Shown in pieces: positions 78-35,436 of a DNA stretch of 64,000 bases. A program made the translations under genes and the position numbers. Each line of letters begins with the position of its first letter. The stretch's first letter is position 1. Origin of the DNA: Candidatus Scatosoma sp. (GTDB taxonomy: Bacteria; Bacillota; Clostridia; Christensenellales; Borkfalkiaceae); the NCBI GenBank assembly GCA_045539975.1, contig JAZQGK010000130.1, positions 1,919-65,918 on the forward strand, written 5' to 3'. Below the pieces are notes generated by a model that was not told the DNA's origin, searched no databases, and saw only the letters and a list, made by a program, of their open reading frames with translations.

Positions 78-1015
78 AGATCCGCCTCCTCATCTTCACC
101 GCTTTCTTCTGTCTGCTCCGCTTGTTCTTCCTGCAATGCGCGAAGGTCGTCGTTCCAATCCTTATGCTTAGGGATTAGTATCTTGCTTGCGATACCCTTC
201 TCAAAGAGCTTATCCGAGATTTTCTCATCGAACAATCTGCCCTTCTCATCGTTATCCAAACAAACGTAAACTTTCTTGATTTCAGGTTTATCCTTCAGCA
301 TTTGCCAAAGCACTCTGTCACCCACGCCGCAACACGCCGCATACGAATGCTGTTCCCAGCCTTCTTTGTTCATACTGATATACGAAAGCATATCGATGGG
401 CGCTTCAAAAATATACAGCCTATCGCTTTTGCCGTACCAGTGGAAACTGTATTCGGGAACGCTGTTTTCCGCATTCCCTCTAAACGAAGATTTATCACCT
501 GTTGCGCGTAAGCTTGCATGCATAATCTTTCCGTTTTTATCCTCGCCGACGAACACTGCATTATGGTAATCCGCCGACTCGTAAATCAACCCCTGCTTTA
601 CAAATGCCGATACCACGTCTTTATCCAAGCCTCGTTTTGTCAGCAAGTACGCATATACCCTGCGCATACTCTCGTTCCTGTTAGGCGGTTGAAAGTCCGT
701 TTTCTGTTTCGGCTTTTCAACAGGCTTTGGCTTTGACGTTTTCATTTCCCCTGCCGTACCGCCAAGCAAATATTCCATCGCCTCTTTGAAGTTTTTCCCA
801 AAGAACTCTTGCACGAATTTAATCGCATTGCCGCCCCGTTCTTCATAGTGATTGTACCACTGACATCCGCGAATGGTTATCCTGTCCGCGCCGTGCTTCC
901 ACTCGTACTCCGAACCCACGGCTTTGAGTTCTTCGCCTTGCCGCCTTAGCATATCCACGATATCCGTTTCGGCGGCTCTCTTAATCTCTTGTTCACTAAA
1001 TTTCTTGTACGCCAT
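56..1015 (-). CDS. Toprim-domain (DUF3991-like) primase-like protein of conjugative elements
   Basis: 319 aa. Toprim glutamate (FEAPIDMLS) and DxD motif (VYVCLDNDEKGR). Lies directly downstream of the relaxase, as in Firmicutes ICEs. Confidence 0.75.
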   Translation of the reverse strand: MAYKKFSEQEIKRAAETDIVDMLRRQGEELKAVGSEYEWKHGADRITIRGCQWYNHYEERGGNAIKFVQEFFGKNFKEAMEYLLGGTAGEMKTSKPKPVEKPKQKTDFQPPNRNESMRRVYAYLLTKRGLDKDVVSAFVKQGLIYESADYHNAVFVGEDKNGKIMHASLRATGDKSSFRGNAENSVPEYSFHWYGKSDRLYIFEAPIDMLSYISMNKEGWEQHSYAACCGVGDRVLWQMLKDKPEIKKVYVCLDNDEKGRLFDEKISDKLFEKGIASKILIPKHKDWNDDLRALQEEQAEQTEESGEDEEADLCQGLQL

Positions 1016-1031
1016 AATTCCTCCTTGCCTT

Positions 1032-3191
1032 TTATTGTTCTTGTTTTAAGCCCTGCGCGCGTTTCTTTTCATTGATACGCCGCAATTCTTTGCTGTCCGT
1101 CATACCGCGCTTGCCGTTTTTCAGCTTATCTCTCATGATCCTGCTCAGATGATAAAACAACCGCACTATCCCTGTTTTCATATACCTTGCTCGGTGTTCC
1201 CGTATGTCTTCCAAGGTCTGTTTTGCATATTCGTTGCCTTGCTCTGCAGCAGAATGCAGATACGCCATCGCCTTTTCTTCATCCCGTTCGACTCCTAAAC
1301 CGTACAGATATATCCTCGCAAGCTGATACTCCGCAAACGCATTCCCGTCCTTCGCCGCTTGCTCGAAATACTCAATGGCTTTTTCCGTATCCGTCAAGCC
1401 TTCTTCCGTAAGCCGAATCTTCCCTGCAAGATACGCCGCGCGCGGATTGCCTTTCCCCGCCGCGCGCTCTAAATATTCCAACGCTTTTTCCGCGTCCTTC
1501 TCTACAAGCTCGCCTTGGTATAAAAGTTTTCCGTACACGTACTCCGCAGGCAGCATACCCTTCTCCGCTGACTGTTTCAAAAACGTAACCGCATCCGCCG
1601 TGTTCTTTTTTAACTTCTCTCCATCGAGCAACGCTTTCCCCAACGTATACGCCGCGTACTTATTCCCTTTGTCTATCGCTCGGCGCAATAACTCTTCCGC
1701 TTTCACGCCGTCGAACGCAAAGTCTTCGCCTTTGAGCAGGGTTTTCCCAAGTAAATATTCCGCATACTCGTTGCCGTCCGACACCGAATCTTCCAACCAC
1801 TTTTGTGCTTGCGCCGTATCCTTCGGGATTTCTTTGCCCGTCAAATACATTTTTCCCAAGCGGTATTTCGCAACCGTATTTCCAAGGCTTGCAGACTCAA
1901 TCAAAAACTCTACCGCTTTCTTCGGATCGTACCCGTCGCTTTCTTCGACAAGCAAATCCTTAGCTTTGCGGTAGAGTTCCCACATCTTTTTTCTGTCCTT
2001 CCATGAAATTTTTACGCTTTCCGTTTCCGCGTCCGTCGGCTCCGACTCAGGCATATCCTTATCCAGCTCTCGTCGTTCCAACACAATGTTCATCGCTTCC
2101 TTGATAACGGCGTTGCGGATGGATTTAAATTCTTCGTTTTGCGACAGCGGAATTCGTTCTTCCATTCTCTTCGTGTACGTCTTTATAACTTCCTCTCTCT
2201 GCTCGTACCATAACTCATAGAGCTTTGCGATACGCTCGTCACTCGCCAGCCCGTCTACGATAGAACACACCAACGCTTTCACGTCAGGTTTAAGATATCC
2301 GTACACTTTTTTTCCTTTCGTCTTCGACAGCCTTTTCGCAAGCTGTACGAGCTTTTGTTCAAGCTGCGGATTGTCATACCCTTCTTCGTTGATCCGACGA
2401 ACGATTTCCGCAATCAAATTCTTGCCTGTGCCTCGCAGTTCGTCACGATGCTGCGTTTGTTTTTCATACACGCTGATAAGATCCTGGGCAAAGATATTCG
2501 CCGCGAACTTCGAACGCATATTGTGTACGCTCTGTTTTGTCAGGTAACCTTCCTTCGGATTCTTCGAATACACAATCAGATGCACGTGCGGATGATGTCC
2601 TTCGTTATGAAACGCGCCGTACCAACAGAAATTTTCAAGCGGGATTTTGAAGTTCTCCGCCATCATCGCCGCTTCCGAACGAAGCATATCCCGCCACCGG
2701 CTTCCGTTATCGTAGCCGAGCCGTTCCGCATCCTCCCTTCGAAGAGAAAGGATTACCGTCCATACGTTCCCGTCGTATTCGTTGAGTACAGCCGACACCG
2801 AATTCAAATTGACAGGCTCGCCGTCGTCCGTGAACAGTCCGTGCGCGCCGAACCGCTCTGCTCTCGGCCTCGTCGCAATATAGTCCGCATACGTTTTCTT
2901 ACCCATTGCCGTTTCAATATTTTCTTCCACGACACGGGAAATGAATTCGGATGCGTTCCACTTGGACGGATCCTTGCAGTAGTCATCGTACTCGTGCATG
3001 TCCTTCGCGTCAGGGAAATCTTGTAAGAGTTTCTTGATGATATCGCCTTGTTTGAGGGTAGCAGGTACGAGTTTAAACGACTCGTCTATCTTTTCCACGC
3101 CCTCTCTCGTAGCAATATATTTTGCGTAGCCGCCTATCTTTTTCAGCTCGTCGTTCTTCAGGTACTTGAACTTTGTTATTAGCCGCGCCAT
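1032..3191 (-). CDS. MobL/MobP-type conjugative relaxase fused to C-terminal Sel1-like repeats
   Basis: 719 aa. Histidine triad HNEGHHPHVHLIVYS in the N-terminal ~400 aa. The C-terminal ~250 aa holds about seven Sel1-type repeats (AEYLLGKTLL, AAYTLGKALL, AEYVYGKLLY, AAYLAGKIRL, AEYQLARIYLYG). Confidence 0.85.
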   Translation of the reverse strand: MARLITKFKYLKNDELKKIGGYAKYIATREGVEKIDESFKLVPATLKQGDIIKKLLQDFPDAKDMHEYDDYCKDPSKWNASEFISRVVEENIETAMGKKTYADYIATRPRAERFGAHGLFTDDGEPVNLNSVSAVLNEYDGNVWTVILSLRREDAERLGYDNGSRWRDMLRSEAAMMAENFKIPLENFCWYGAFHNEGHHPHVHLIVYSKNPKEGYLTKQSVHNMRSKFAANIFAQDLISVYEKQTQHRDELRGTGKNLIAEIVRRINEEGYDNPQLEQKLVQLAKRLSKTKGKKVYGYLKPDVKALVCSIVDGLASDERIAKLYELWYEQREEVIKTYTKRMEERIPLSQNEEFKSIRNAVIKEAMNIVLERRELDKDMPESEPTDAETESVKISWKDRKKMWELYRKAKDLLVEESDGYDPKKAVEFLIESASLGNTVAKYRLGKMYLTGKEIPKDTAQAQKWLEDSVSDGNEYAEYLLGKTLLKGEDFAFDGVKAEELLRRAIDKGNKYAAYTLGKALLDGEKLKKNTADAVTFLKQSAEKGMLPAEYVYGKLLYQGELVEKDAEKALEYLERAAGKGNPRAAYLAGKIRLTEEGLTDTEKAIEYFEQAAKDGNAFAEYQLARIYLYGLGVERDEEKAMAYLHSAAEQGNEYAKQTLEDIREHRARYMKTGIVRLFYHLSRIMRDKLKNGKRGMTDSKELRRINEKKRAQGLKQEQ

Positions 3192-3613
3192 TCAGTTCCT
3201 TTCTGCCAGTCGAGCGCGTCTTCAAAACCAAACGAGCCGTTTAAGCGTTTCACTTCTTTCACGCATTCGCCGCGCAACCTTTCCAACGACACTTGGTCGA
3301 TATCCAAGTTAATCGCAAGGATGTTCATCATCAACGCCATCTCCACCGCCAGCTTGAACAGCACTCGGCCCTGCTTGTTCTCGCTCTCCGCCACGATTCC
3401 TTTCAAGGTCGACAGTACGATATGCGGAAGGTATTCCTTGTTGTCGTTAGACGAAAGATACCCAACGTAAAAATCTACCGCCTTTTCCACGAGTTCGCTC
3501 TTGGTTAGACAGTTCGCCTTTTTATACCAATCGTCTATCTTTTGCAAGGTTTCTTTTTTTGCCCATAAAGCGAACCTTTTCTTATCTTCTTGCTCTGCTT
3601 TCTTTTCTGTCAC
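3179..3613 (-). CDS. Relaxosome accessory protein, ribbon-helix-helix type (MobC-like role)
   Basis: 144 aa. N-terminal RHH pattern KKRFALWAKKETLQKIDDWY...LVEKAVDFYV. Overlaps the relaxase start by 13 nt and sits next to the candidate oriT. Confidence 0.6.
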   Translation of the reverse strand: MTEKKAEQEDKKRFALWAKKETLQKIDDWYKKANCLTKSELVEKAVDFYVGYLSSNDNKEYLPHIVLSTLKGIVAESENKQGRVLFKLAVEMALMMNILAINLDIDQVSLERLRGECVKEVKRLNGSFGFEDALDWQKGTEWRG

Positions 3614-3629
3614 AATTTCCTCCTTTCTT

Positions 3630-3815
3630 CCTTAACCCACCCCGTAACCCACTCGTTTTCCCTTACAACACCGCATATTCAGCCTTCCGCAACCCACTCC
3701 TTGACACAACACCCCGTTTTACAACCCACTCGGCTCAAATCGCTGAATCCCTTGAAACAGCGGGCGTTGCACGCTGTTGTGAACTGCGTTTGGGGTGTCT
3801 ACAACCCAAACGCTT
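3630..3815. promoter_or_regulatory. Candidate oriT (iterated AACCCAC motifs plus hairpin)
   Basis: Lies in a 360-bp ORF-free gap upstream of the RHH-relaxase operon. AACCCAC occurs at 3634, 3646, 3691 and 3723, with variant AACCCAA at 3803. An imperfect hairpin AACAGCG-N9-CGCTGTT spans 3756-3778. Confidence 0.5.
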
Positions 3816-3974
3816 TCACCTGCTTATTTTCTACCCTATGCCACCGCGCGACAATAGCCTGAATCTTGCGTTTTTACACTCGCGCACAAAGGTTTGAATT
3901 TCGCCTTGTTTTGCCCCGTCGGGTACTTCTGCCACCCGCTTGGAATCGTCGCAAACAGGCGGTATTTTCGCCCT

Positions 3975-4631
3975 TTAAGGCGGTGTTAATCCTAACGCTA
4001 CTTGGTCCAAATCTTCGCCTTCCAGGTTACTGCGGAATATCTGCTCTCGCTCTTGTTCCGTCAAGCCGACTGCATCTTCGGCGTTTTCCACCGCTTTCGT
4101 TAAGGTATATAGGTCGTAGGCTTTCCAAGTTTCACAGCTCGGCTCTAACACTTGAACGTTTTCTTCATATAAATCGAAAGTCAACACCGCCGTAATAAAC
4201 GGAGTGTTTTTGATAGAACTGCACAAGACCTCAAACACCGATTCGTCCAACGAGCTTTCCGCACCAAAACATCTTTGTCCAATTGTGTCTACCGTGTATT
4301 GTTTTAAGTCTTCAGACTTACTCGCTTCTACATAATTTTTAGCAATCGTGAAAAAGTTTTCGCCACGCCGCGAGATAAATGCATATTCCTCGAACTCATC
4401 TCGGATACGCACTACGGCGAATTGTTTTTCTTTTAATAATTCCCCCAAGTCATCCGCATCGATTTGCTTTTCAATTTCTTTGCGTTGCGCTTCGGGAATA
4501 AGTTCTTGATACCATGCCTCCGCTTTCGCTTGGAGCTGCTCGTCGAAATTATTTCCGCCGCGTTCGAGAGCTTCTCGCATCGCGGCGTACTTGCGGTAGT
4601 GAATAGGAATTTTCAATTCTTTATTTGCCAT
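3975..4631 (-). CDS. Hypothetical protein (acidic, 218 aa), first ORF next to candidate oriT
   Basis: Long ORF in the operon frame and strand. No motif recognised. Confidence 0.6.
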   Translation of the reverse strand: MANKELKIPIHYRKYAAMREALERGGNNFDEQLQAKAEAWYQELIPEAQRKEIEKQIDADDLGELLKEKQFAVVRIRDEFEEYAFISRRGENFFTIAKNYVEASKSEDLKQYTVDTIGQRCFGAESSLDESVFEVLCSSIKNTPFITAVLTFDLYEENVQVLEPSCETWKAYDLYTLTKAVENAEDAVGLTEQEREQIFRSNLEGEDLDQVALGLTPP

Positions 4632-4878
4632 CCGTTACCTCCTCGTCCGCGCCTGCGGCGATAGCAGAAGATATAACACCTTTCTTTACTGTATTCTTAC
4701 CGCCGTTCCCTGCTCGTAGCGAAAGATATTCCCTCACCCCTGCAGGTACAGTTTTCGTGTACAAACTTTCCATGGCTTTTTCCACCTCGCCTTCCACCGT
4801 TTGTCCTTTCTGCTCCAGATACACTTTCAATGCCGACAGCTTTTCTTCGTCATAGCTTACCGTAATATTTTTCTTCAT
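4621..4878 (-). CDS. Hypothetical protein (85 aa)
   Basis: ORF overlaps the next gene by 11 nt (translational coupling). No motif recognised. Confidence 0.55.
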   Translation of the reverse strand: MKKNITVSYDEEKLSALKVYLEQKGQTVEGEVEKAMESLYTKTVPAGVREYLSLRAGNGGKNTVKKGVISSAIAAGADEEVTDGK

Positions 4879-4890
4879 ACTTCCTCCTTC

Positions 4891-5223
4891 TTACATAGAT
4901 TGCATCGGTGTCAACACCAACACGTCGTCCTGTTCTTCCAACTCATAGTGACCTGGATAATTCCTCGCCACTTGCGGCGGGCAATATAAATGGCACGCAA
5001 AACAGCTTTTGATGATACCATGTCCGCGTTCATCCTGTTTTAACGCAAGCACGCCATGCTCTTTATCCACGCCCCATACCCATTTGCATTCCATTAGAAA
5101 CGGAAATTTCTTCAAGGCTTTTTGACTTACGTAGGCAGGTGCGCCTTTGTAAATTGCGACATCCGTTCGGCCACGCGTTACGCCTGCGCCATACTTAAAA
5201 TTGTATTTCTTTTTCTCTGCCAT
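4891..5223 (-). CDS. Hypothetical protein (110 aa) with Cys/His cluster
   Basis: ORF in the operon. Contains CFACHLYC plus nearby His residues. No family recognised. Confidence 0.55.
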   Translation of the reverse strand: MAEKKKYNFKYGAGVTRGRTDVAIYKGAPAYVSQKALKKFPFLMECKWVWGVDKEHGVLALKQDERGHGIIKSCFACHLYCPPQVARNYPGHYELEEQDDVLVLTPMQSM

Positions 5224-5232
5224 CTTTTACTC

Positions 5233-6291
5233 CTACATTTCACCGAGCTTCAACCCGTTTTTCTGCCCCGTCCATTCCTGTTCATCATATACACAGTCCG
5301 TTGTGTCGCAGTCCTCAATGTCCGTGCGATGAAATTTCGTCTTTTCTAAACAGCTCTCCCGTAAAACACTATTGTAAAAATGACAATCCCAGAATGCTGT
5401 TTTTGTAAGGTTGCTTGATGTCATATCTGCACGACTTAAATCGCAATTAGAAAATTTCGCACCCGTAAAATCCGAGTCTATTGCCGTCATTTCCATACAC
5501 TCGGTTTTTATAATTCTTGTTCCCTTAAAAGACGAAGCGTTCACGTTCGCACCGTTCATTCTTGAATCTATAATTTTTGCATTATCAAATATCATATTTT
5601 CAAGCCATCTATCCGACATTTCCAAATTGCGCAATAAACAGTTTGAAAAATCCGCCTGTTCTCCGCTGCCGTTATCTAACCATAACAAATGCTTGGCATA
5701 GATAAGCTCAAATTCTTTTTGTGTGATTACTTTTAAATGGCTATCATCTTCTTCATAAGCAAATTTAGGCGCAACTACTATCCGTACTATATCATCGTCT
5801 TGTCCTGACATATTAATTTCAGGTCGCTCTGCTAACATGGAAATAAATACGTCCATATTAAAAGGTTCTTTATCGTATAACTCAGACTCAGGGAAACTGT
5901 ATTGACCTTGTTTCTGATAACGTAACGCCTTTTCTACTTGCTCGTCTACCGCCTCCACCATATTTTTATTTAATTTCGTCAACGACGGATATTTTTCCTG
6001 TTGTACGATTGCTTTTGCATAAGGTAAATACGCCGTATGACGAGGATACGAATATCCTTCCGATATTACGAGAATCCCGTCTTCTTGACCTTTCCCCACC
6101 ACAAGCAAACACCGAGCTATACCGCTTTCGTCTACTCGGTATTTATCTGAATTTTTTGAAATAAAATCGTAATCCTCGTTCATATGATTACAAAAATTTG
6201 CAAATTCTTCCGTGGATAGCTTCACCACATCTTCTATTGTAAACTCTTGTGTTCTTTGCTCCAATGGTATACGACTAAATTCTATTTTCAT
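5233..6291 (-). CDS. Pentapeptide-repeat protein with unknown N-terminal domain
   Basis: 352 aa. From about aa 213 to 330 there are continuous A(D/N)LXX-type pentapeptide repeats (ADFSNCLLRNLEMSD...FTGAKFSNCDLSRADMTSSNLTKTAF...). Confidence 0.8.
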   Translation of the reverse strand: MKIEFSRIPLEQRTQEFTIEDVVKLSTEEFANFCNHMNEDYDFISKNSDKYRVDESGIARCLLVVGKGQEDGILVISEGYSYPRHTAYLPYAKAIVQQEKYPSLTKLNKNMVEAVDEQVEKALRYQKQGQYSFPESELYDKEPFNMDVFISMLAERPEINMSGQDDDIVRIVVAPKFAYEEDDSHLKVITQKEFELIYAKHLLWLDNGSGEQADFSNCLLRNLEMSDRWLENMIFDNAKIIDSRMNGANVNASSFKGTRIIKTECMEMTAIDSDFTGAKFSNCDLSRADMTSSNLTKTAFWDCHFYNSVLRESCLEKTKFHRTDIEDCDTTDCVYDEQEWTGQKNGLKLGEM

Positions 6292-31574: not shown

Positions 31575-32027
31575 TTATTTACAGTATTTTTCTTCAATCG
31601 CTTTAATCTTTGCGATACGCCTATCGTGCCGCTCTCCGCCCTCATATTCGCAGGTCAAAAACGCGTTCACAATCTCTTCCATCAAGCCCTCGCCAACGAC
31701 TTTTTCGCCAAAAGCGATCATGTTTGCGTCGTTGTGATAGCGCGTGTATTTCGCACAGTATACGTCATGACAATGCGCGCAGCGAATCCCCGGCACTTTG
31801 TTTGCCACAATGGAAACGCCTATCCCCGACGAACAGACGACAATGCCCCGTTCGCATTCTCCGCAAGCGACCGACTCCGCCGCCAACAAGGCAAAATCCG
31901 GATAATCGCAGGACTCGGCTGTCTTTGTGCCGAAATCCACAACTTCATGCCCGTTCTTTTGTAAATATGCCACCAAAGCATTCTTTAAGCGCAATCCGCC
32001 ATGATCGCACGCAACTGCAATTTTCAT
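31575..32027 (-). CDS. rpiB: Ribose-5-phosphate isomerase B
   Basis: 150 aa. MKIAVACDHGG...GIVVCSSGIGVSIVANK, the RpiB/LacAB signature. Confidence 0.95.
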   Translation of the reverse strand: MKIAVACDHGGLRLKNALVAYLQKNGHEVVDFGTKTAESCDYPDFALLAAESVACGECERGIVVCSSGIGVSIVANKVPGIRCAHCHDVYCAKYTRYHNDANMIAFGEKVVGEGLMEEIVNAFLTCEYEGGERHDRRIAKIKAIEEKYCK

Positions 32028-32062: not shown

Positions 32063-32776
32063 TTATTCCATGATACGCAACTGCACGTTGCCCGATTCTT
32101 CCGCCGAGGAAGACGCCGCGGTCTTTTTTGGTCTGCCGCGTTTTTTGGGTTCGCCCGTCGGTTCGGGTATGGGATTTTTTCTCGGCCTGCCGCGTTTTTT
32201 GGGCGGTATCGGGTTTCCGTTTTCGTCCGTTTTAGGCGTTGCCGCTTTGGGAGCGCGGGGCTTGGGTTTTGCCGAAAGCTCTTCCAAGCGCAGTTTCTCG
32301 ATAAGATGCGTCATACCCGCCGATAACAGCCCGAAAACGTAACGATAACATTCAATATCCCTGCCATACGGGTCCATGACCTCGTATCCGCTGATTTCCG
32401 CAAAAGAATACACGTTGTTGGGGATTTCTTCCTCTCCGATTCGATCCGCTTTCCGCAAAGCCTGCCAACGCATATCCATCAATCTGTCTTTTTGTTCTTC
32501 CGTCATGCAAACGATTGCAAACGCGTCGCGCAAATCCCTATCCTTAATCGGCGCGGAAGCAAACTCCGCAGCGGATAGCCCGTGTTCTTCCAAAACCTGC
32601 ACGGATTTGGGGTTCATGGGCGTGCCTTTTGTCGCCCGAAGCCCTGCCGAATACACGCAAAATCCTTTGATTTTCCGTTCCGCTATTTTGCTTTCGAGCA
32701 ACCTTTCCGCCATGGGAGAACGACAGGTATTCCCCGTACAAACAAATATGATTTTTTTGCCCGTTTTTCTTTTCAT
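32063..32776 (-). CDS. ywlE: Low-molecular-weight phosphatase (YwlE-type, probable protein-arginine phosphatase) with a C-terminal AT-hook tail
   Basis: The P-loop FVCTGNTCRSPMAE is identical to B. subtilis YwlE, and the sua5-ywlE-rpiB synteny is kept. An extra ~70 aa tail carries KKRGRPRKN and KKRGRPKKT. Confidence 0.85.
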   Translation of the reverse strand: MKRKTGKKIIFVCTGNTCRSPMAERLLESKIAERKIKGFCVYSAGLRATKGTPMNPKSVQVLEEHGLSAAEFASAPIKDRDLRDAFAIVCMTEEQKDRLMDMRWQALRKADRIGEEEIPNNVYSFAEISGYEVMDPYGRDIECYRYVFGLLSAGMTHLIEKLRLEELSAKPKPRAPKAATPKTDENGNPIPPKKRGRPRKNPIPEPTGEPKKRGRPKKTAASSSAEESGNVQLRIME

Positions 32777-32806: not shown

Positions 32807-33826
32807 TTAATGCGCTACGTCCACCGAAACGCAAGCTTTGCGCAACCGGTTTAATACCCCTGCCATCACCCCGTCCGTCTTACGAGGTTCTACGGCGATA
32901 AGTACGTCGCATACTTTTTCCGCCTCTCTTAAAAGCGTGTATAATCTGTTTGCCATTTCTTCTTCCGTGTTCCCAAGATTGAGTATTTGTACACCCAAGC
33001 AGCAAAACGTATCCACCAAGCCGCTCTCGCAAAGCACGGCTACTTTTTTACCTGCCGATTGCTCGTTTTGGCACGCGATATACGCTTTTTCGCAGTCCGT
33101 GTACGCAAACAACGCCGTTTGGCAACGCGGTGAATAATGTTTGTACAAAACACCGGGGCTTTTGACCTTTTCCCCAGCGGAGAAATTCGGTGTGTATTCT
33201 TGACAATCCCCAACCACAGCGGCTATCATTTCGCGCGTAATCAGTCCCGGACGCAAAATGACGGGTATATCGCCCGTAACGTCGCAAACGGTACTTTCGA
33301 TGCCGCCCACGCACTCGCCCCCGTCCAAAATTAAAGGGATTTTCCCAACAAAGTCCTCGTAAACGTGCTGCGCGGAAGTGGGAGAAACGTGTTTGGATAT
33401 GTTGGCACTGGGCGCGACAATCGGGACGTCCACCGCGCGGAGCAAAGCTTGCGCGCCGTCATGCGAAGGCACACGCACCGCCAGGGTATCCAAACCACAG
33501 GAAACGTGTTTGCTTACCTTGCCCGTCGAGGGATATACCAACGTCAACGGCCCGGGCAAAAACGCTTCGCGCAGTTTTTTTGCGTAAGGGGGATCGCGGT
33601 CGATAATTTTGGATAAATCGTAGCCGGTATGCACGTGCGCAATCAAGGGATTGTCGTTGGGTCTGCCTTTGACCTCGAAAATGCGCTTTACCGCCCCGTC
33701 ATCAAAGGCGTTTCCGCCAAGCCCGTACACCGTTTCCGTCGGTATCGCCACCACACCGCCGTCGAATATTAAATTTTTCGCCTCTTCGATGGATTGCGGC
33801 GTAATACCTTTGATTTCCGTCTTCAT
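32807..33826 (-). CDS. sua5: L-threonylcarbamoyladenylate synthase (Sua5/YwlC type)
   Basis: 339 aa. YrdC-domain motifs IPTETVYGLGGNAFD and KGRPNDNPLIAHV plus a Sua5 C-terminal domain. Confidence 0.95.
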   Translation of the reverse strand: MKTEIKGITPQSIEEAKNLIFDGGVVAIPTETVYGLGGNAFDDGAVKRIFEVKGRPNDNPLIAHVHTGYDLSKIIDRDPPYAKKLREAFLPGPLTLVYPSTGKVSKHVSCGLDTLAVRVPSHDGAQALLRAVDVPIVAPSANISKHVSPTSAQHVYEDFVGKIPLILDGGECVGGIESTVCDVTGDIPVILRPGLITREMIAAVVGDCQEYTPNFSAGEKVKSPGVLYKHYSPRCQTALFAYTDCEKAYIACQNEQSAGKKVAVLCESGLVDTFCCLGVQILNLGNTEEEMANRLYTLLREAEKVCDVLIAVEPRKTDGVMAGVLNRLRKACVSVDVAH

Positions 33827-33856: not shown

Positions 33857-35368
33857 TTATTCAAAAGGAATTTCATCGTCCGCCTTTGCCAAATCGCCTT
33901 TCCTCGGCGGCATGGGCGGTTCCGGTACTCCGTAATCGTCGTCGGGCGCTACGTACTCCTCGTCGTCATCGTCAGGAATTCTCGGCGTCGTGCCGTATTG
34001 AGGCGGCTCGTCGTCGCGGTTTTGTTCGTCTACGTCCACGAACTTGGTATATTCGCCGATGAACTTCAAAGAAACTCTGCCCTGTTCGCCGGCTCTGTGT
34101 TTTGCAAGAATAAGTTCCGCCGCGCCTTTGACAATTTTACCCGAATCGATTTCTTCCTTGGTTGCAATCGCTTCCGGACGGCTGATGAACATTACGATGT
34201 CCGCGTCTTGCTCGATAGCACCCGATTCACGAAGATCGGAAAGCTGCGGTTCTTTGGACTGGATACGGCGCAGCTGCGAAAGCGCGATAACCGGCACGCC
34301 CAGCTCTTTTGCCATAATCTTCAAGTCACGAGTAATCGACGCGACTTCCTGTTGTCTGTTTTCCGCTCCTGCGAGGTTGGAATCCCCACTGGACATAAGC
34401 TGGATATAGTCGATCATAATCAAATCGACGCCGCCTGCCGTAGTCTTCAAACGACGGCATTTGGACAAAATTTCCGCAGGCGTAACGCGCGAGGAATCGT
34501 CAATGTAAATATTACTCTTTTTCAGCTGATCGCCTGCCAGCATCAATTTTTTCCATTCTTTTGCCGAAAGTTCGCCCGAAAGCGCGTTTTTCATGCTTAC
34601 GTTCGCATACGAACAAATAAGTCTTTGCACGATTTCGTGGCGAGGCATTTCGAGGGAGAACACCGCACAGGTCTTTCCTGCGCGCAGTGCCGCATGTTCG
34701 ACAATGTTCATTGCAAGCGAGGTTTTCCCCATGCCCGGACGAGCCGCAAGGACGATGAGCGCACCCGATTGCAAACCGTTGGTCATTCTATCCAAACGCT
34801 TAAAACCCGTAGGAATCCCCTTAAACGCGTCCTGATCCGATTGCAATTTTTCAAATTTTTGCAATACGTCACCGATGATATCGTCGTCTTTCATGCTGAG
34901 CAAAGCCGAGCGTTCCGTCTGTTTGGAAATATCGTAAATACTCTTTTCCGCAAAGGCGAGCGACGTCTTTTCGTCCACCCCTTTCATGGAAGTTTCGATA
35001 ATTTTACGGGACGCGCGAATGAGCTTTCTATTGATGCTGTCGCGTGCGATAATATCGTAATAGGATTTGTAGTTTGCCGTGGAAGGCGTGATTTGCGTGA
35101 GCTCGGTCAAATACATGATACCGCCTGCTTTTTCCAGCGAACCTTCGTTTTCCAAATCGTCGGAAACGGTGACGAGATCCACGGGTTTTCTATCGTTGAA
35201 TACCCGTTTCATGGCGCGCAAAATATATTTGTGCGATTCCTGATAAAAATCGTCCTCCGTCAGTTTTTCCACGAGGTCTGCCGTAATCTCGCTATCAATC
35301 AACAAACACCCCAGCAGCGCCATCTCGGCGTCGCGGTTATAAGGCATCGTATTGGTTTCGTTTGCCAT
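33857..35368 (-). CDS. dnaB: Replicative DNA helicase DnaB with an acidic C-terminal extension
   Basis: Walker A AARPGMGKTS, Walker B LIMIDYIQLM, and the N-terminal PYNRDAEMALLGCLL. Start at MANETN (ATG 35368, AAGGAG 7 nt upstream). A tail of about 53 aa ends in ADDEIPFE. Confidence 0.95.
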   Translation of the reverse strand: MANETNTMPYNRDAEMALLGCLLIDSEITADLVEKLTEDDFYQESHKYILRAMKRVFNDRKPVDLVTVSDDLENEGSLEKAGGIMYLTELTQITPSTANYKSYYDIIARDSINRKLIRASRKIIETSMKGVDEKTSLAFAEKSIYDISKQTERSALLSMKDDDIIGDVLQKFEKLQSDQDAFKGIPTGFKRLDRMTNGLQSGALIVLAARPGMGKTSLAMNIVEHAALRAGKTCAVFSLEMPRHEIVQRLICSYANVSMKNALSGELSAKEWKKLMLAGDQLKKSNIYIDDSSRVTPAEILSKCRRLKTTAGGVDLIMIDYIQLMSSGDSNLAGAENRQQEVASITRDLKIMAKELGVPVIALSQLRRIQSKEPQLSDLRESGAIEQDADIVMFISRPEAIATKEEIDSGKIVKGAAELILAKHRAGEQGRVSLKFIGEYTKFVDVDEQNRDDEPPQYGTTPRIPDDDDEEYVAPDDDYGVPEPPMPPRKGDLAKADDEIPFE

Positions 35369-35436
35369 ACTCGTTCTCCTTGTCTTTTCGGGCAAAGTAC
35401 GCTTTCATCGCGTACCTGCCCCATTCATTTTTTTCA

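Follow-up and report, generated by a model that had tools for sequence, protein, structure and literature searches.

A YwlE-type protein-arginine phosphatase with a basic, AT-hook-bearing C-terminal tail that may tether it to DNA in an uncultured gut clostridium

In the present study, we analysed a window of 64,000 nucleotides from Candidatus Scatosoma sp. (NCBI GenBank assembly GCA_045539975.1, contig JAZQGK010000130.1, positions 1,919 to 65,918 of the forward strand), in which a gene on the reverse strand at 32063..32776 (237 codons and a TAA stop, as read from the translation of its open reading frame, ORF) encodes a putative YwlE-type protein-arginine phosphatase that continues beyond its catalytic domain into a basic tail with two AT-hook motifs. 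The ATG of this gene is preceded, at a distance of approximately 12 nt, by the ribosome-binding-site-like sequence AAAGGAGGGGG. The ORFs of the window place it in a same-strand array that is headed by a dnaB-type replicative helicase gene (33857..35395, reverse strand; named from its translation alone) and continues with sua5/tsaC as the upstream neighbour (32807..33826, reverse strand; PF01300 with an expectation value, E, of 2.7e-54, and PF03481), the ywlE-type gene itself, rpiB as the downstream neighbour (31575..32027, reverse strand; PF02502, E 4.5e-58), and the gene for an MscS-type channel. An earlier annotation made from the letters of the window, referred to here as the original prediction, had described the sua5-ywlE-rpiB arrangement as conserved, and this description was upheld: both neighbours lie on the same strand and match their Pfam families, sua5 is directly upstream of ywlE in 38 of 38 genus-level loci, rpiB is downstream in 37 of 38, and a dnaB homologue precedes sua5 in 35 of 38, the three misses being locus ends. 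Since the sua5/rpiB synteny is kept, the tailed and tail-less genes described below are regarded as true orthologues. In Bacillus, ywlE also lies next to sua5 and rpiB.

Regarding the catalytic part, residues 9-157 (32306..32752, reverse strand) match the Pfam family PF01451 (LMWPc; E 3.6e-24), and their score of 86 bits exceeds the cut-off of 23.2. The family is also matched by all 61 relatives in an alignment for which sequences were picked by rank and not by their tails. The P-loop C13-T-G-N-T17-C-R19-S20 (32717..32740, reverse strand), which has the form C-X5-R-(S/T) with Thr17 at its position 5, is invariant in 61 of 61 aligned relatives, and the general-acid triad D135-P-Y137 (32366..32374, reverse strand), which aligns with the DPF of the structure 4pic, is likewise invariant in the 61-sequence alignment. 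A P-loop of this form and a D-P-Y general acid are given as features of low-molecular-weight (LMW) phosphatases in PMC8001253, section 3.4 of which describes position 5 of the P-loop as setting specificity in YwlE and PtpB, with Thr for phosphoarginine (pArg) and Ile for phosphotyrosine. Among PDB structures, the best sequence match is 4pic, YwlE of Geobacillus stearothermophilus (E 1.5e-16), followed by the YwlE entries of B. subtilis. In an AlphaFold2 model built on 61 sequences, residues 11-170 have predicted local distance difference test scores (pLDDT) of 95 or more, and its top Foldseek matches are all YwlE (4pic, 4kk4, and 4etn; target template-modelling score, TM-score, 0.84-0.88, E 4.9e-15). 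Relative to the solved YwlE structures, the protein has an insertion of approximately 10-20 residues at residues ~100-121 (32414-32479, reverse strand), which appears as a gap in the 4pic alignment and within which R103, W104, N120, and N121 are invariant.

The kinase that writes the pArg mark is encoded in the same genome, in which mcsA, mcsB, and clpC stand in a row on another contig, C174 (McsB E 6.5e-59), and McsB is present in 25 of 25 genus genomes. In a family sample of 201 genomes from 23 genera, which was examined for the presence of YwlE, McsB, and CtsR, there are six genera in which YwlE was found in 0/4, 0/16, 0/16, 0/1, 0/6, and 0/3 genomes and McsB in 0/4, 0/16, 0/16, 0/1, 1/6, and 0/3, respectively, and both proteins are present in the remaining 17 genera. 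McsB and YwlE are, therefore, kept or missing together across the 23 genera of the family, a co-presence that is to be read as a pattern and not as a statistic, as related genomes are not independent. The gene order of four other genera (loci L103, L104, L105, and L106 in genomes G211, G055, G054, and G059) consists in 4 of 4 cases of dnaB-sua5-ywlE-rpiB, a gap of 1-2 kb, and mcsB-clpC on one strand, and 3 of these loci also contain mcsA. Eraser and writer of pArg thus stand in a single gene row in these genera, and are on different contigs in the genome of the window. We consider the gene to be the YwlE of this lineage, a protein-arginine phosphatase predicted to reverse McsB marks, with a specificity for pArg that is suggested by its sequence. 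The YwlE-type assignment of the original prediction is in agreement with the Thr of the P-loop, the DPY triad, YwlE as the best match in sequence and in fold, the McsB of the same genome, and the joint retention or loss of the two enzymes.

The tail comprises S168-E237 (32066..32275, reverse strand), 70 residues that include 13 Pro, 11 Lys, and 7 Arg and have a pI of 10.8 versus 8.2 for the catalytic part; the approximately 70 extra residues rich in Pro and Lys that had been anticipated are, therefore, present. The AlphaFold2 model has no secondary structure beyond residue 167, with pLDDT decreasing from ~83 at residues 171-190 to 46 at the end, and the tail is accordingly modelled as a flexible, disordered appendage. 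Its RGRP core with Lys/Arg flanks occurs twice, as AT-hook 1 (K193-K-R-G-R-P-R-K200; 32177..32200, reverse strand) and AT-hook 2 (K211-K-R-G-R-P-K-K218; 32123..32146, reverse strand), at exactly the positions for which the original prediction had named KKRGRPRKN and KKRGRPKKT. Both hooks match the founding AT-hook consensus TPKRPRGRPKK, as quoted in PMC11354804. The Pfam AT_hook profile (PF02178), a model of 13 positions, is matched by 35 of the 61 relatives at E <= 0.01 (best 6.4e-6), and a precomputed PF02178 hit exists for 8 of 120 listed relatives; the window protein itself is a near miss, with 16.8 bits against a gathering score of 17.4 and its best stretch at residues 210-221, and this counts against the hook assignment. 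The hooks are, thus, putative AT-hooks assigned by motif and not by profile. Where database relatives have been given names, these are "hypothetical protein". Directly after the domain, the segment K-P-K-P-R-A-P-K (K170-K177; 32246..32269, reverse strand) is semi-conserved in the alignments of hook-bearing and hook-less tails (consensus AxKxKPR), has a pLDDT of ~83, unlike the rest of the tail, and may pack on the catalytic domain.

A homologue search returned 1900 sequences at E <= 0.001, and the best 120 of these together with the query make up the 121 nearest clusters that were counted. Two hooks are present in 91 of these clusters, a single hook in 19, three hooks in 2, and none in 9, such that at least one hook is present in 112 of 121, and the tail is net positive in 120 of 121, the exception having no tail at all. 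In the 61 relatives, K193, K194, R195, G196, P198, and K200 of hook 1 are at least 90% conserved, whereas the linkers are without consensus. R213, G214, R215, P216, and K218 of hook 2 are invariant in an alignment of tails that have the clamp-like end described below. The codons inside the conserved hooks differ synonymously between species, which means that selection at the protein level, and not recent common DNA, maintains the shared hook peptide.

The end of the gene was also read in 51 loci from whole genomes, the genus-level rows of which number 39 (36 genomes of the genus of the window, its own included, and three named records of metagenome-assembled genomes, MAGs, inside this genus). 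A basic tail of 11-134 residues is present in 39 of 39 genus-level orthologues, with at least one [KR]GRP hook in 13; a further 25 have hook-less tails that are either rich in Lys, Thr, Ala, and Pro or of the RKPRAKPRKR type, and one ends with only ALPPTPRKKKE. In other genera of the family, 12 of 12 orthologues at the same syntenic position end 0-7 residues past the domain. The tail is thus an innovation at the level of the genus, and the AT-hook one of its forms. A maximum-likelihood tree of the catalytic domains (50 rows, without the truncated row L056) groups 11 of the 13 hook forms in one clade of 14 rows (support 92/84), with L041 placed elsewhere and L042 elsewhere on a long branch; a single origin of the hooks is likely from this topology. 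The genus tails also have a second recurring end that consists of [KQ]KGE and one to three further residues (KQGEKK, QKGEVL, and KKGEIDL) and occurs in 11 of 39 versus 0.75 expected by shuffling (L011, L015, L017-L019, L030, L034-L036, L038, and L042), mostly in hook-less tails.

With this distribution, we were able to weigh the possibility that the tail is an artefact in which a frameshift, a lost stop, or a misassembly added non-coding sequence to a normal YwlE of 165 aa. The genome, with a size of 2.38 Mb and a GC content of 45%, is a fragmented draft of 222 contigs and 76.6% completeness, which is the only point that speaks for such an error. The reading frame runs through the tail to a stop 35 nt before rpiB, the tail recurs in independent assemblies (120 clusters and 39 genus-level loci), and the codons of its conserved hooks carry the synonymous differences described above; a frameshift or read-through artefact is excluded. 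The original prediction had proposed that related orthologues be examined for the tail and had held that its absence from close relatives, together with a frameshift or read-through, would speak against the proposal; the tail was found to be in frame and conserved, with hooks in 112 of the 121 nearest clusters and a basic tail in every genus-level orthologue.

The hooks are also confined to this gene. When the genome of the window was surveyed in six frames, RGRP was found in nine stop-to-stop segments of at least 80 aa, among which only the tail described here has RGRP twice with Lys/Arg flanks. A search of 41 genus genomes with a degenerate DNA pattern for KKRGRPxK returned 13 matches, spread over 9 genomes, and none for a reversed control, and in all nine genomes the pattern lies in a frame that also carries the phosphatase P-loop; the DNA pattern of the hook occurs only in this gene across the 41 genus genomes. 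The idea of AT-hooks as a genome-wide habit of the organism was rejected because no further pair, in tandem or with Lys/Arg flanks, appeared in this six-frame census. Elsewhere, RGRP or KGRP occurs singly in an IS3-type OrfA-like frame (contig C129), a phage-like helix-turn-helix (HTH) frame (C29), and an antisense frame (C213). The first of these (C129, 17477-17932, reverse strand) has one PKKGRPRKK between its HTH part and a coiled-coil-like end; among the plausible genes of this genome, it is the sole further case of a Lys-flanked GRP motif.

In order to search for the origin of the hooks, the tail alone (52 aa) was compared by phmmer with 1.84 billion representatives, which gave 27 hits at E <= 0.001. 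Most of these are eukaryote-like multi-hook proteins (C2H2 and PHD), and the few prokaryote-like hits are a Rho with an N-terminal insert, a DUF892 protein with a hook, and an HTH_3 protein with a hook (P0136, P0138, and P0148). None of the 27 hits contains LMWPc, and we name no donor of the hook module. Judged by these sequences, AT-hooks on bacterial proteins appear to be rare, yet are not confined to the present family.

The explanation that we favour as a whole is a YwlE that is tethered to DNA by its hook tail and possibly also held at the sliding clamp, to which we assign a probability of approximately 0.65. The tail on its own is quite probably a DNA tether, and we infer this from sequence because the motif is identical to the AT-hook consensus and because hook tails are swapped among orthologues for tails that resemble histone H1. 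The orthologues alternate between hook tails and Lys/Ala/Pro/Thr-rich, H1-like tails, and this swap, which by analogy points to DNA binding as the selected property, is the strongest indirect argument for the tether. Work on the CarD protein by Garcia-Heras and colleagues in 2009 reportedly found that H1-like and HMGA-like versions of its tail are interchangeable. The DNA-binding C-terminal region of myxobacterial CarD is described in PMC4374960 as intrinsically unfolded and as having four RGRP hooks, and the alternation between HMGA-type and H1-type versions is known for this region (PMC4374960 and the reference cited there).

Several points weigh against a DNA tether. AT-hooks can also bind RNA and proteins, according to passages in PMC11354804; the hook itself is inessential to the role of the tail, as 25 of the 39 genus-level orthologues do without it; and whatever we say about binding and activity reaches beyond the sequence from which it is drawn. 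These points bring in a second explanation, in which the tail is a general binder of polyanions (RNA, ribosomes, polyphosphate, or acidic membrane lipids) and RGRP is one way of being basic and flexible. The cases of structured RNA bound by AT-hooks that are mentioned in PMC11354804 are consistent with this, and the hook-less basic tails of the genus and the net positive charge of 120 of the 121 nearest tails fit selection for charge better than a reading of the DNA groove. However, selection for charge alone would not need an eight-residue hook that is conserved nearly letter for letter while its surroundings drift, the alternative tails resemble DNA-binding tails of the histone H1 type, and a clamp-like motif at the C-terminus, described below, suggests machinery bound to DNA. 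We consider general polyanion binding to be unlikely.

The disorder of the tail, its seven arginines, and the presence of McsB, McsA, and ClpC in the genome also allow for a regulatory function toward the phosphatase itself, in which the arginines are substrates or pseudo-substrates of McsB, and the tail acts as a pArg degron for ClpCP or as an auto-inhibitory peptide at the active site. In PMC8370763, pArg is described as marking proteins for ClpCP and YwlE as removing accessible pArg; the conserved KPR segment just after the domain, with its pLDDT of ~83, also fits a regulatory role. On the other hand, many hook-less tails are rich in Lys with few Arg (e.g., L006, L011, and L035), so that arginine is not the conserved feature, and neither a degron nor a pseudo-substrate needs an exact AT-hook consensus. 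Self-regulation by the tail is, in our opinion, very unlikely, and we retain the DNA-tethered phosphatase as the preferred explanation.

The protein ends with Q232-L-R-I-M-E237 (32066..32083, reverse strand), and Gln-hydrophobic ends of this kind are common among its relatives (QLHIDF, QLRIEF, QIKLEF, QLSIF, and QISLF). The bacterial clamp-binding motif is given as QL[S/D]LF, or more broadly QxxLF, mostly near the C-terminus, with a hexapeptide form QLxLxL and with positions 1, 4, and 5 weighing most, in the parts of PMC4549789 and PMC12309361 that deal with it. Within their last 20 residues, 33 of 120 tails match a penta-/hexapeptide pattern for this motif, versus 0.57 by shuffling (a maximum of 3 in 1000 shuffles), a seven-residue variant is matched in 42 of 120, and the background of the pattern is 1.4% of 1990 long six-frame ORFs of the genome of the window. 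QL[HRQ]I[DE]F occurs in 6 of the 8 nearest clusters by rank, though the preceding linker differs. The clamp-like motif also occurs in hook-less tails, namely, 4 of 8 in the nearest clusters (the ninth hook-less cluster being tail-less) and two hook-less genus loci. The DinB-type polymerase of the genome has no clear QLxLF at its end and is, therefore, unusable as a local reference for the motif. A two-hook subgroup (P0074, P0081, P0090, P0096, P0101, P0102, P0104, P0113, and P0115) lacks the Gln motif at its end and has [ED]LPL[LF]x[YF]Ix[TI]GE[IL] instead; ELPLF is compatible with xLxLF, and may represent a clamp-type motif without Gln or something else.

A complex of the organism's own beta sliding clamp, DnaN (370 aa, with an alignment of 29 genus sequences), and tail residues 200-237 was modelled in three runs with three controls. 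The scores were 0.73, 0.74, and 0.73, versus 0.02 for the best control; among solved complexes, 116 of 157 attain that mark, as do 2 of 215 mismatched pairs. The three runs agree in at least 61% of contacts, and the partner has a pLDDT of at least 45. Confident contacts in the model connect tail residues 229-236 with DnaN residues 172, 174-177, 241, 246, 277-278, 280, 317, 319, 343, 345, 359, and 361-366, which would correspond to the cleft between domains II and III that takes up peptides in E. coli clamp structures.

Against these results, the window motif has Gln at position 1 and has Ile and Met at positions 4 and 5 instead of Leu and Phe, positions that matter for binding according to PMC12309361. 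The motif is, moreover, patchy, with 4 of 39 genus-level loci having it, and the nearest species representative and a named Candidatus Scatosoma MAG (L094 and L027) have two hooks, end with ...EEKTEEKPE, and lack the clamp motif. The tail alignment used for the model was chosen from motif-bearing sequences, and many complexes of the clamp with peptides have been solved, so that the pass may reflect likeness alone. Considering the model together with these reservations, the odds that the window protein binds the clamp fall somewhat short of even.

Instead of binding the clamp, the hydrophobic C-terminus may imitate the C-terminal tip of the single-stranded DNA-binding protein (SSB), act as a recognition tag for a protease or as a short linear motif of some other kind, or have no function. 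Several relatives end with ...IDF, ...IEF, ...IPF, or ...LEF, the first three of which may resemble the acidic-hydrophobic tip of SSB, and the absence of the motif from most genus orthologues and of Phe from the window version also fits an explanation other than the clamp. The feature common to these ends is, however, a Gln at position 1 with hydrophobic residues at 2 and 4; the motif is not always terminal (QLSIFKEQKS and QISLFEGENI), as would be expected of a clamp motif more than of a C-terminal tip; and in the model, residues 229-236 occupy a single cleft of DnaN, with a low expected error. We regard an explanation other than clamp binding as possible, but doubtful.

If the phosphatase is tethered to DNA, a mechanism may be outlined as follows. 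The disordered basic tail with its two hooks (PKKRGRP[RK]K) would tether YwlE to chromosomal DNA, and the QLRIME end may also hold the enzyme on DNA-loaded beta sliding clamps through their hydrophobic cleft. The consequence would be a high local concentration of the phosphatase at the chromosome, where DNA-contacting arginines are exposed, and the tethered enzyme could strip pArg from DNA-bound proteins before they are released from DNA or delivered to ClpCP. The account of the mark in PMC8370763 includes the phosphorylation by McsB of arginines with which the heads of CtsR and HrcA read DNA, which frees these repressors from DNA, the delivery of proteins with the same mark to ClpCP, and a proposed role of YwlE in rescuing McsB-marked proteins. 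A further suggestion, which we regard as doubtful, is that YwlE is a client of the sliding clamp and that the hooks and the clamp peptide place it on the chromosome behind or at replication forks, in which case the erasure of pArg would be spatially organised.

This mechanism is weakened by the outcome of searches for the two classical DNA-bound substrates of McsB, neither of which was found in the genus. CtsR (PF05848) gave no match in 25 genus genomes and was found in 4 of the 201 genomes of the family sample. HrcA (PF01628), which was considered as a possible DNA-bound substrate, was not found in any of 41 genus genomes or in the genome of the window. The loss of CtsR was considered as a correlate of the gain of the tail and rejected, as the loss is family-wide and includes genera with a tail-less YwlE. 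Outside the window, mcsA-mcsB-clpC (contig C174, ~891-5825) has been kept though CtsR and HrcA were not found, and mcsA is directly preceded by an ORF of 260 aa (891-1673), the translation of which resembles an XRE-type HTH with hydrophobic, membrane-like segments after it. This ORF sits at the position that ctsR has in Bacillus and may be a replacement regulator.

In comparison with known systems, the protein shares the LMW protein tyrosine phosphatase fold, CTGNTCRS with its Thr, DPY, and McsB as a partner with YwlE of B. subtilis and G. stearothermophilus (4kk3 and 4pic) and PtpB of Staphylococcus aureus; however, the known YwlE-type enzymes have 150-156 aa and end at the catalytic domain, whereas the window protein adds a tail of 70 aa with two hooks and a clamp-like end. 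With the HMGA-like CarD of Myxococcus xanthus it has in common an unfolded, hook-bearing C-terminus, although CarD, a transcription factor with RNA polymerase and CarG as its partners, carries an acidic stretch followed by four hooks, and the two proteins have no sequence relationship outside the hooks. Architectural factors of the HMGA/CarD type are characterised by an acidic region and three or four hooks that make up the main functional part of the protein, and CarD in addition by an N-terminal domain that interacts with RNA polymerase. The window protein is an enzyme with an N-terminal phosphatase, two hooks, and no long acidic stretch, and is, thus, not a member of the architectural factors of the HMGA/CarD type, to the tails of which its own tail is likened. 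WhiB7 of mycobacteria has a C-terminal AT-hook that reads AT-rich DNA, as described in parts of PMC11354804 and PMC10432532, but is an iron-sulfur transcription activator with one hook, in contrast to the window protein as an enzyme that acts on proteins. AT-hooks in bacteria are thus known from CarD and WhiB7, and AT-hook-like loops from H-NS and Lsr2. Clients of the beta clamp with a QLxLF-type C-terminus, such as polymerases and insertion sequence (IS) transposases, similarly end a flexible region with a short Gln-hydrophobic motif, according to sections of PMC4549789 and PMC12309361; known clients act on DNA, whereas the window protein is a phosphatase with a motif that is off-consensus at positions 4 and 5. 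Full-text searches found no literature that combines an AT-hook with an arginine phosphatase or YwlE, and none on a protein phosphatase with a clamp-binding motif, the matches listed for the latter concerning, by their titles and the starts of their abstracts, the PHP domain of polymerases.

The window protein is, therefore, a new architecture of a known enzyme with a plausible new mode of localisation, and not a new kind of system. Within the reach of computation, the interpretation given in the original prediction is supported, and the present analysis adds to it the genus-level scope of the tail, the replacement of hook tails by H1-like tails, the restriction of the hook to this gene, the matching presence of YwlE and McsB, the clamp-like end, and the Pfam AT_hook score just below its threshold. 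To our knowledge, YwlE is the only known eraser of pArg and has so far been treated as a small soluble enzyme. If YwlE is bound to DNA, and possibly to the clamp, in this lineage, the eraser of pArg can be localised, and a localised eraser would give a handle on where and on which substrates pArg is removed. The protein would also represent a clear bacterial case of AT-hooks on an enzyme instead of a transcription factor. Should the clamp-client suggestion prove to be true, the bacterial clamp partners would for the first time include a protein phosphatase, and a chromosome-bound arm of McsB/YwlE would be indicated for the first time. The orthologue series, which extends from no tail through an H1-like tail to one to three hooks, with or without a clamp-like end, is ready comparative material for these questions.

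The organism is known as a MAG of an uncultured gut member of Clostridia in a genus of small genomes. Among records with a name, the closest is that of a MAG listed as Candidatus Scatosoma sp. (66% identity), assigned by NCBI to Clostridia incertae sedis. Across relatives, identity to the proteins of the window is 37-71% for the catalytic domain, 66-78% for Sua5, and 78-89% for RpiB.

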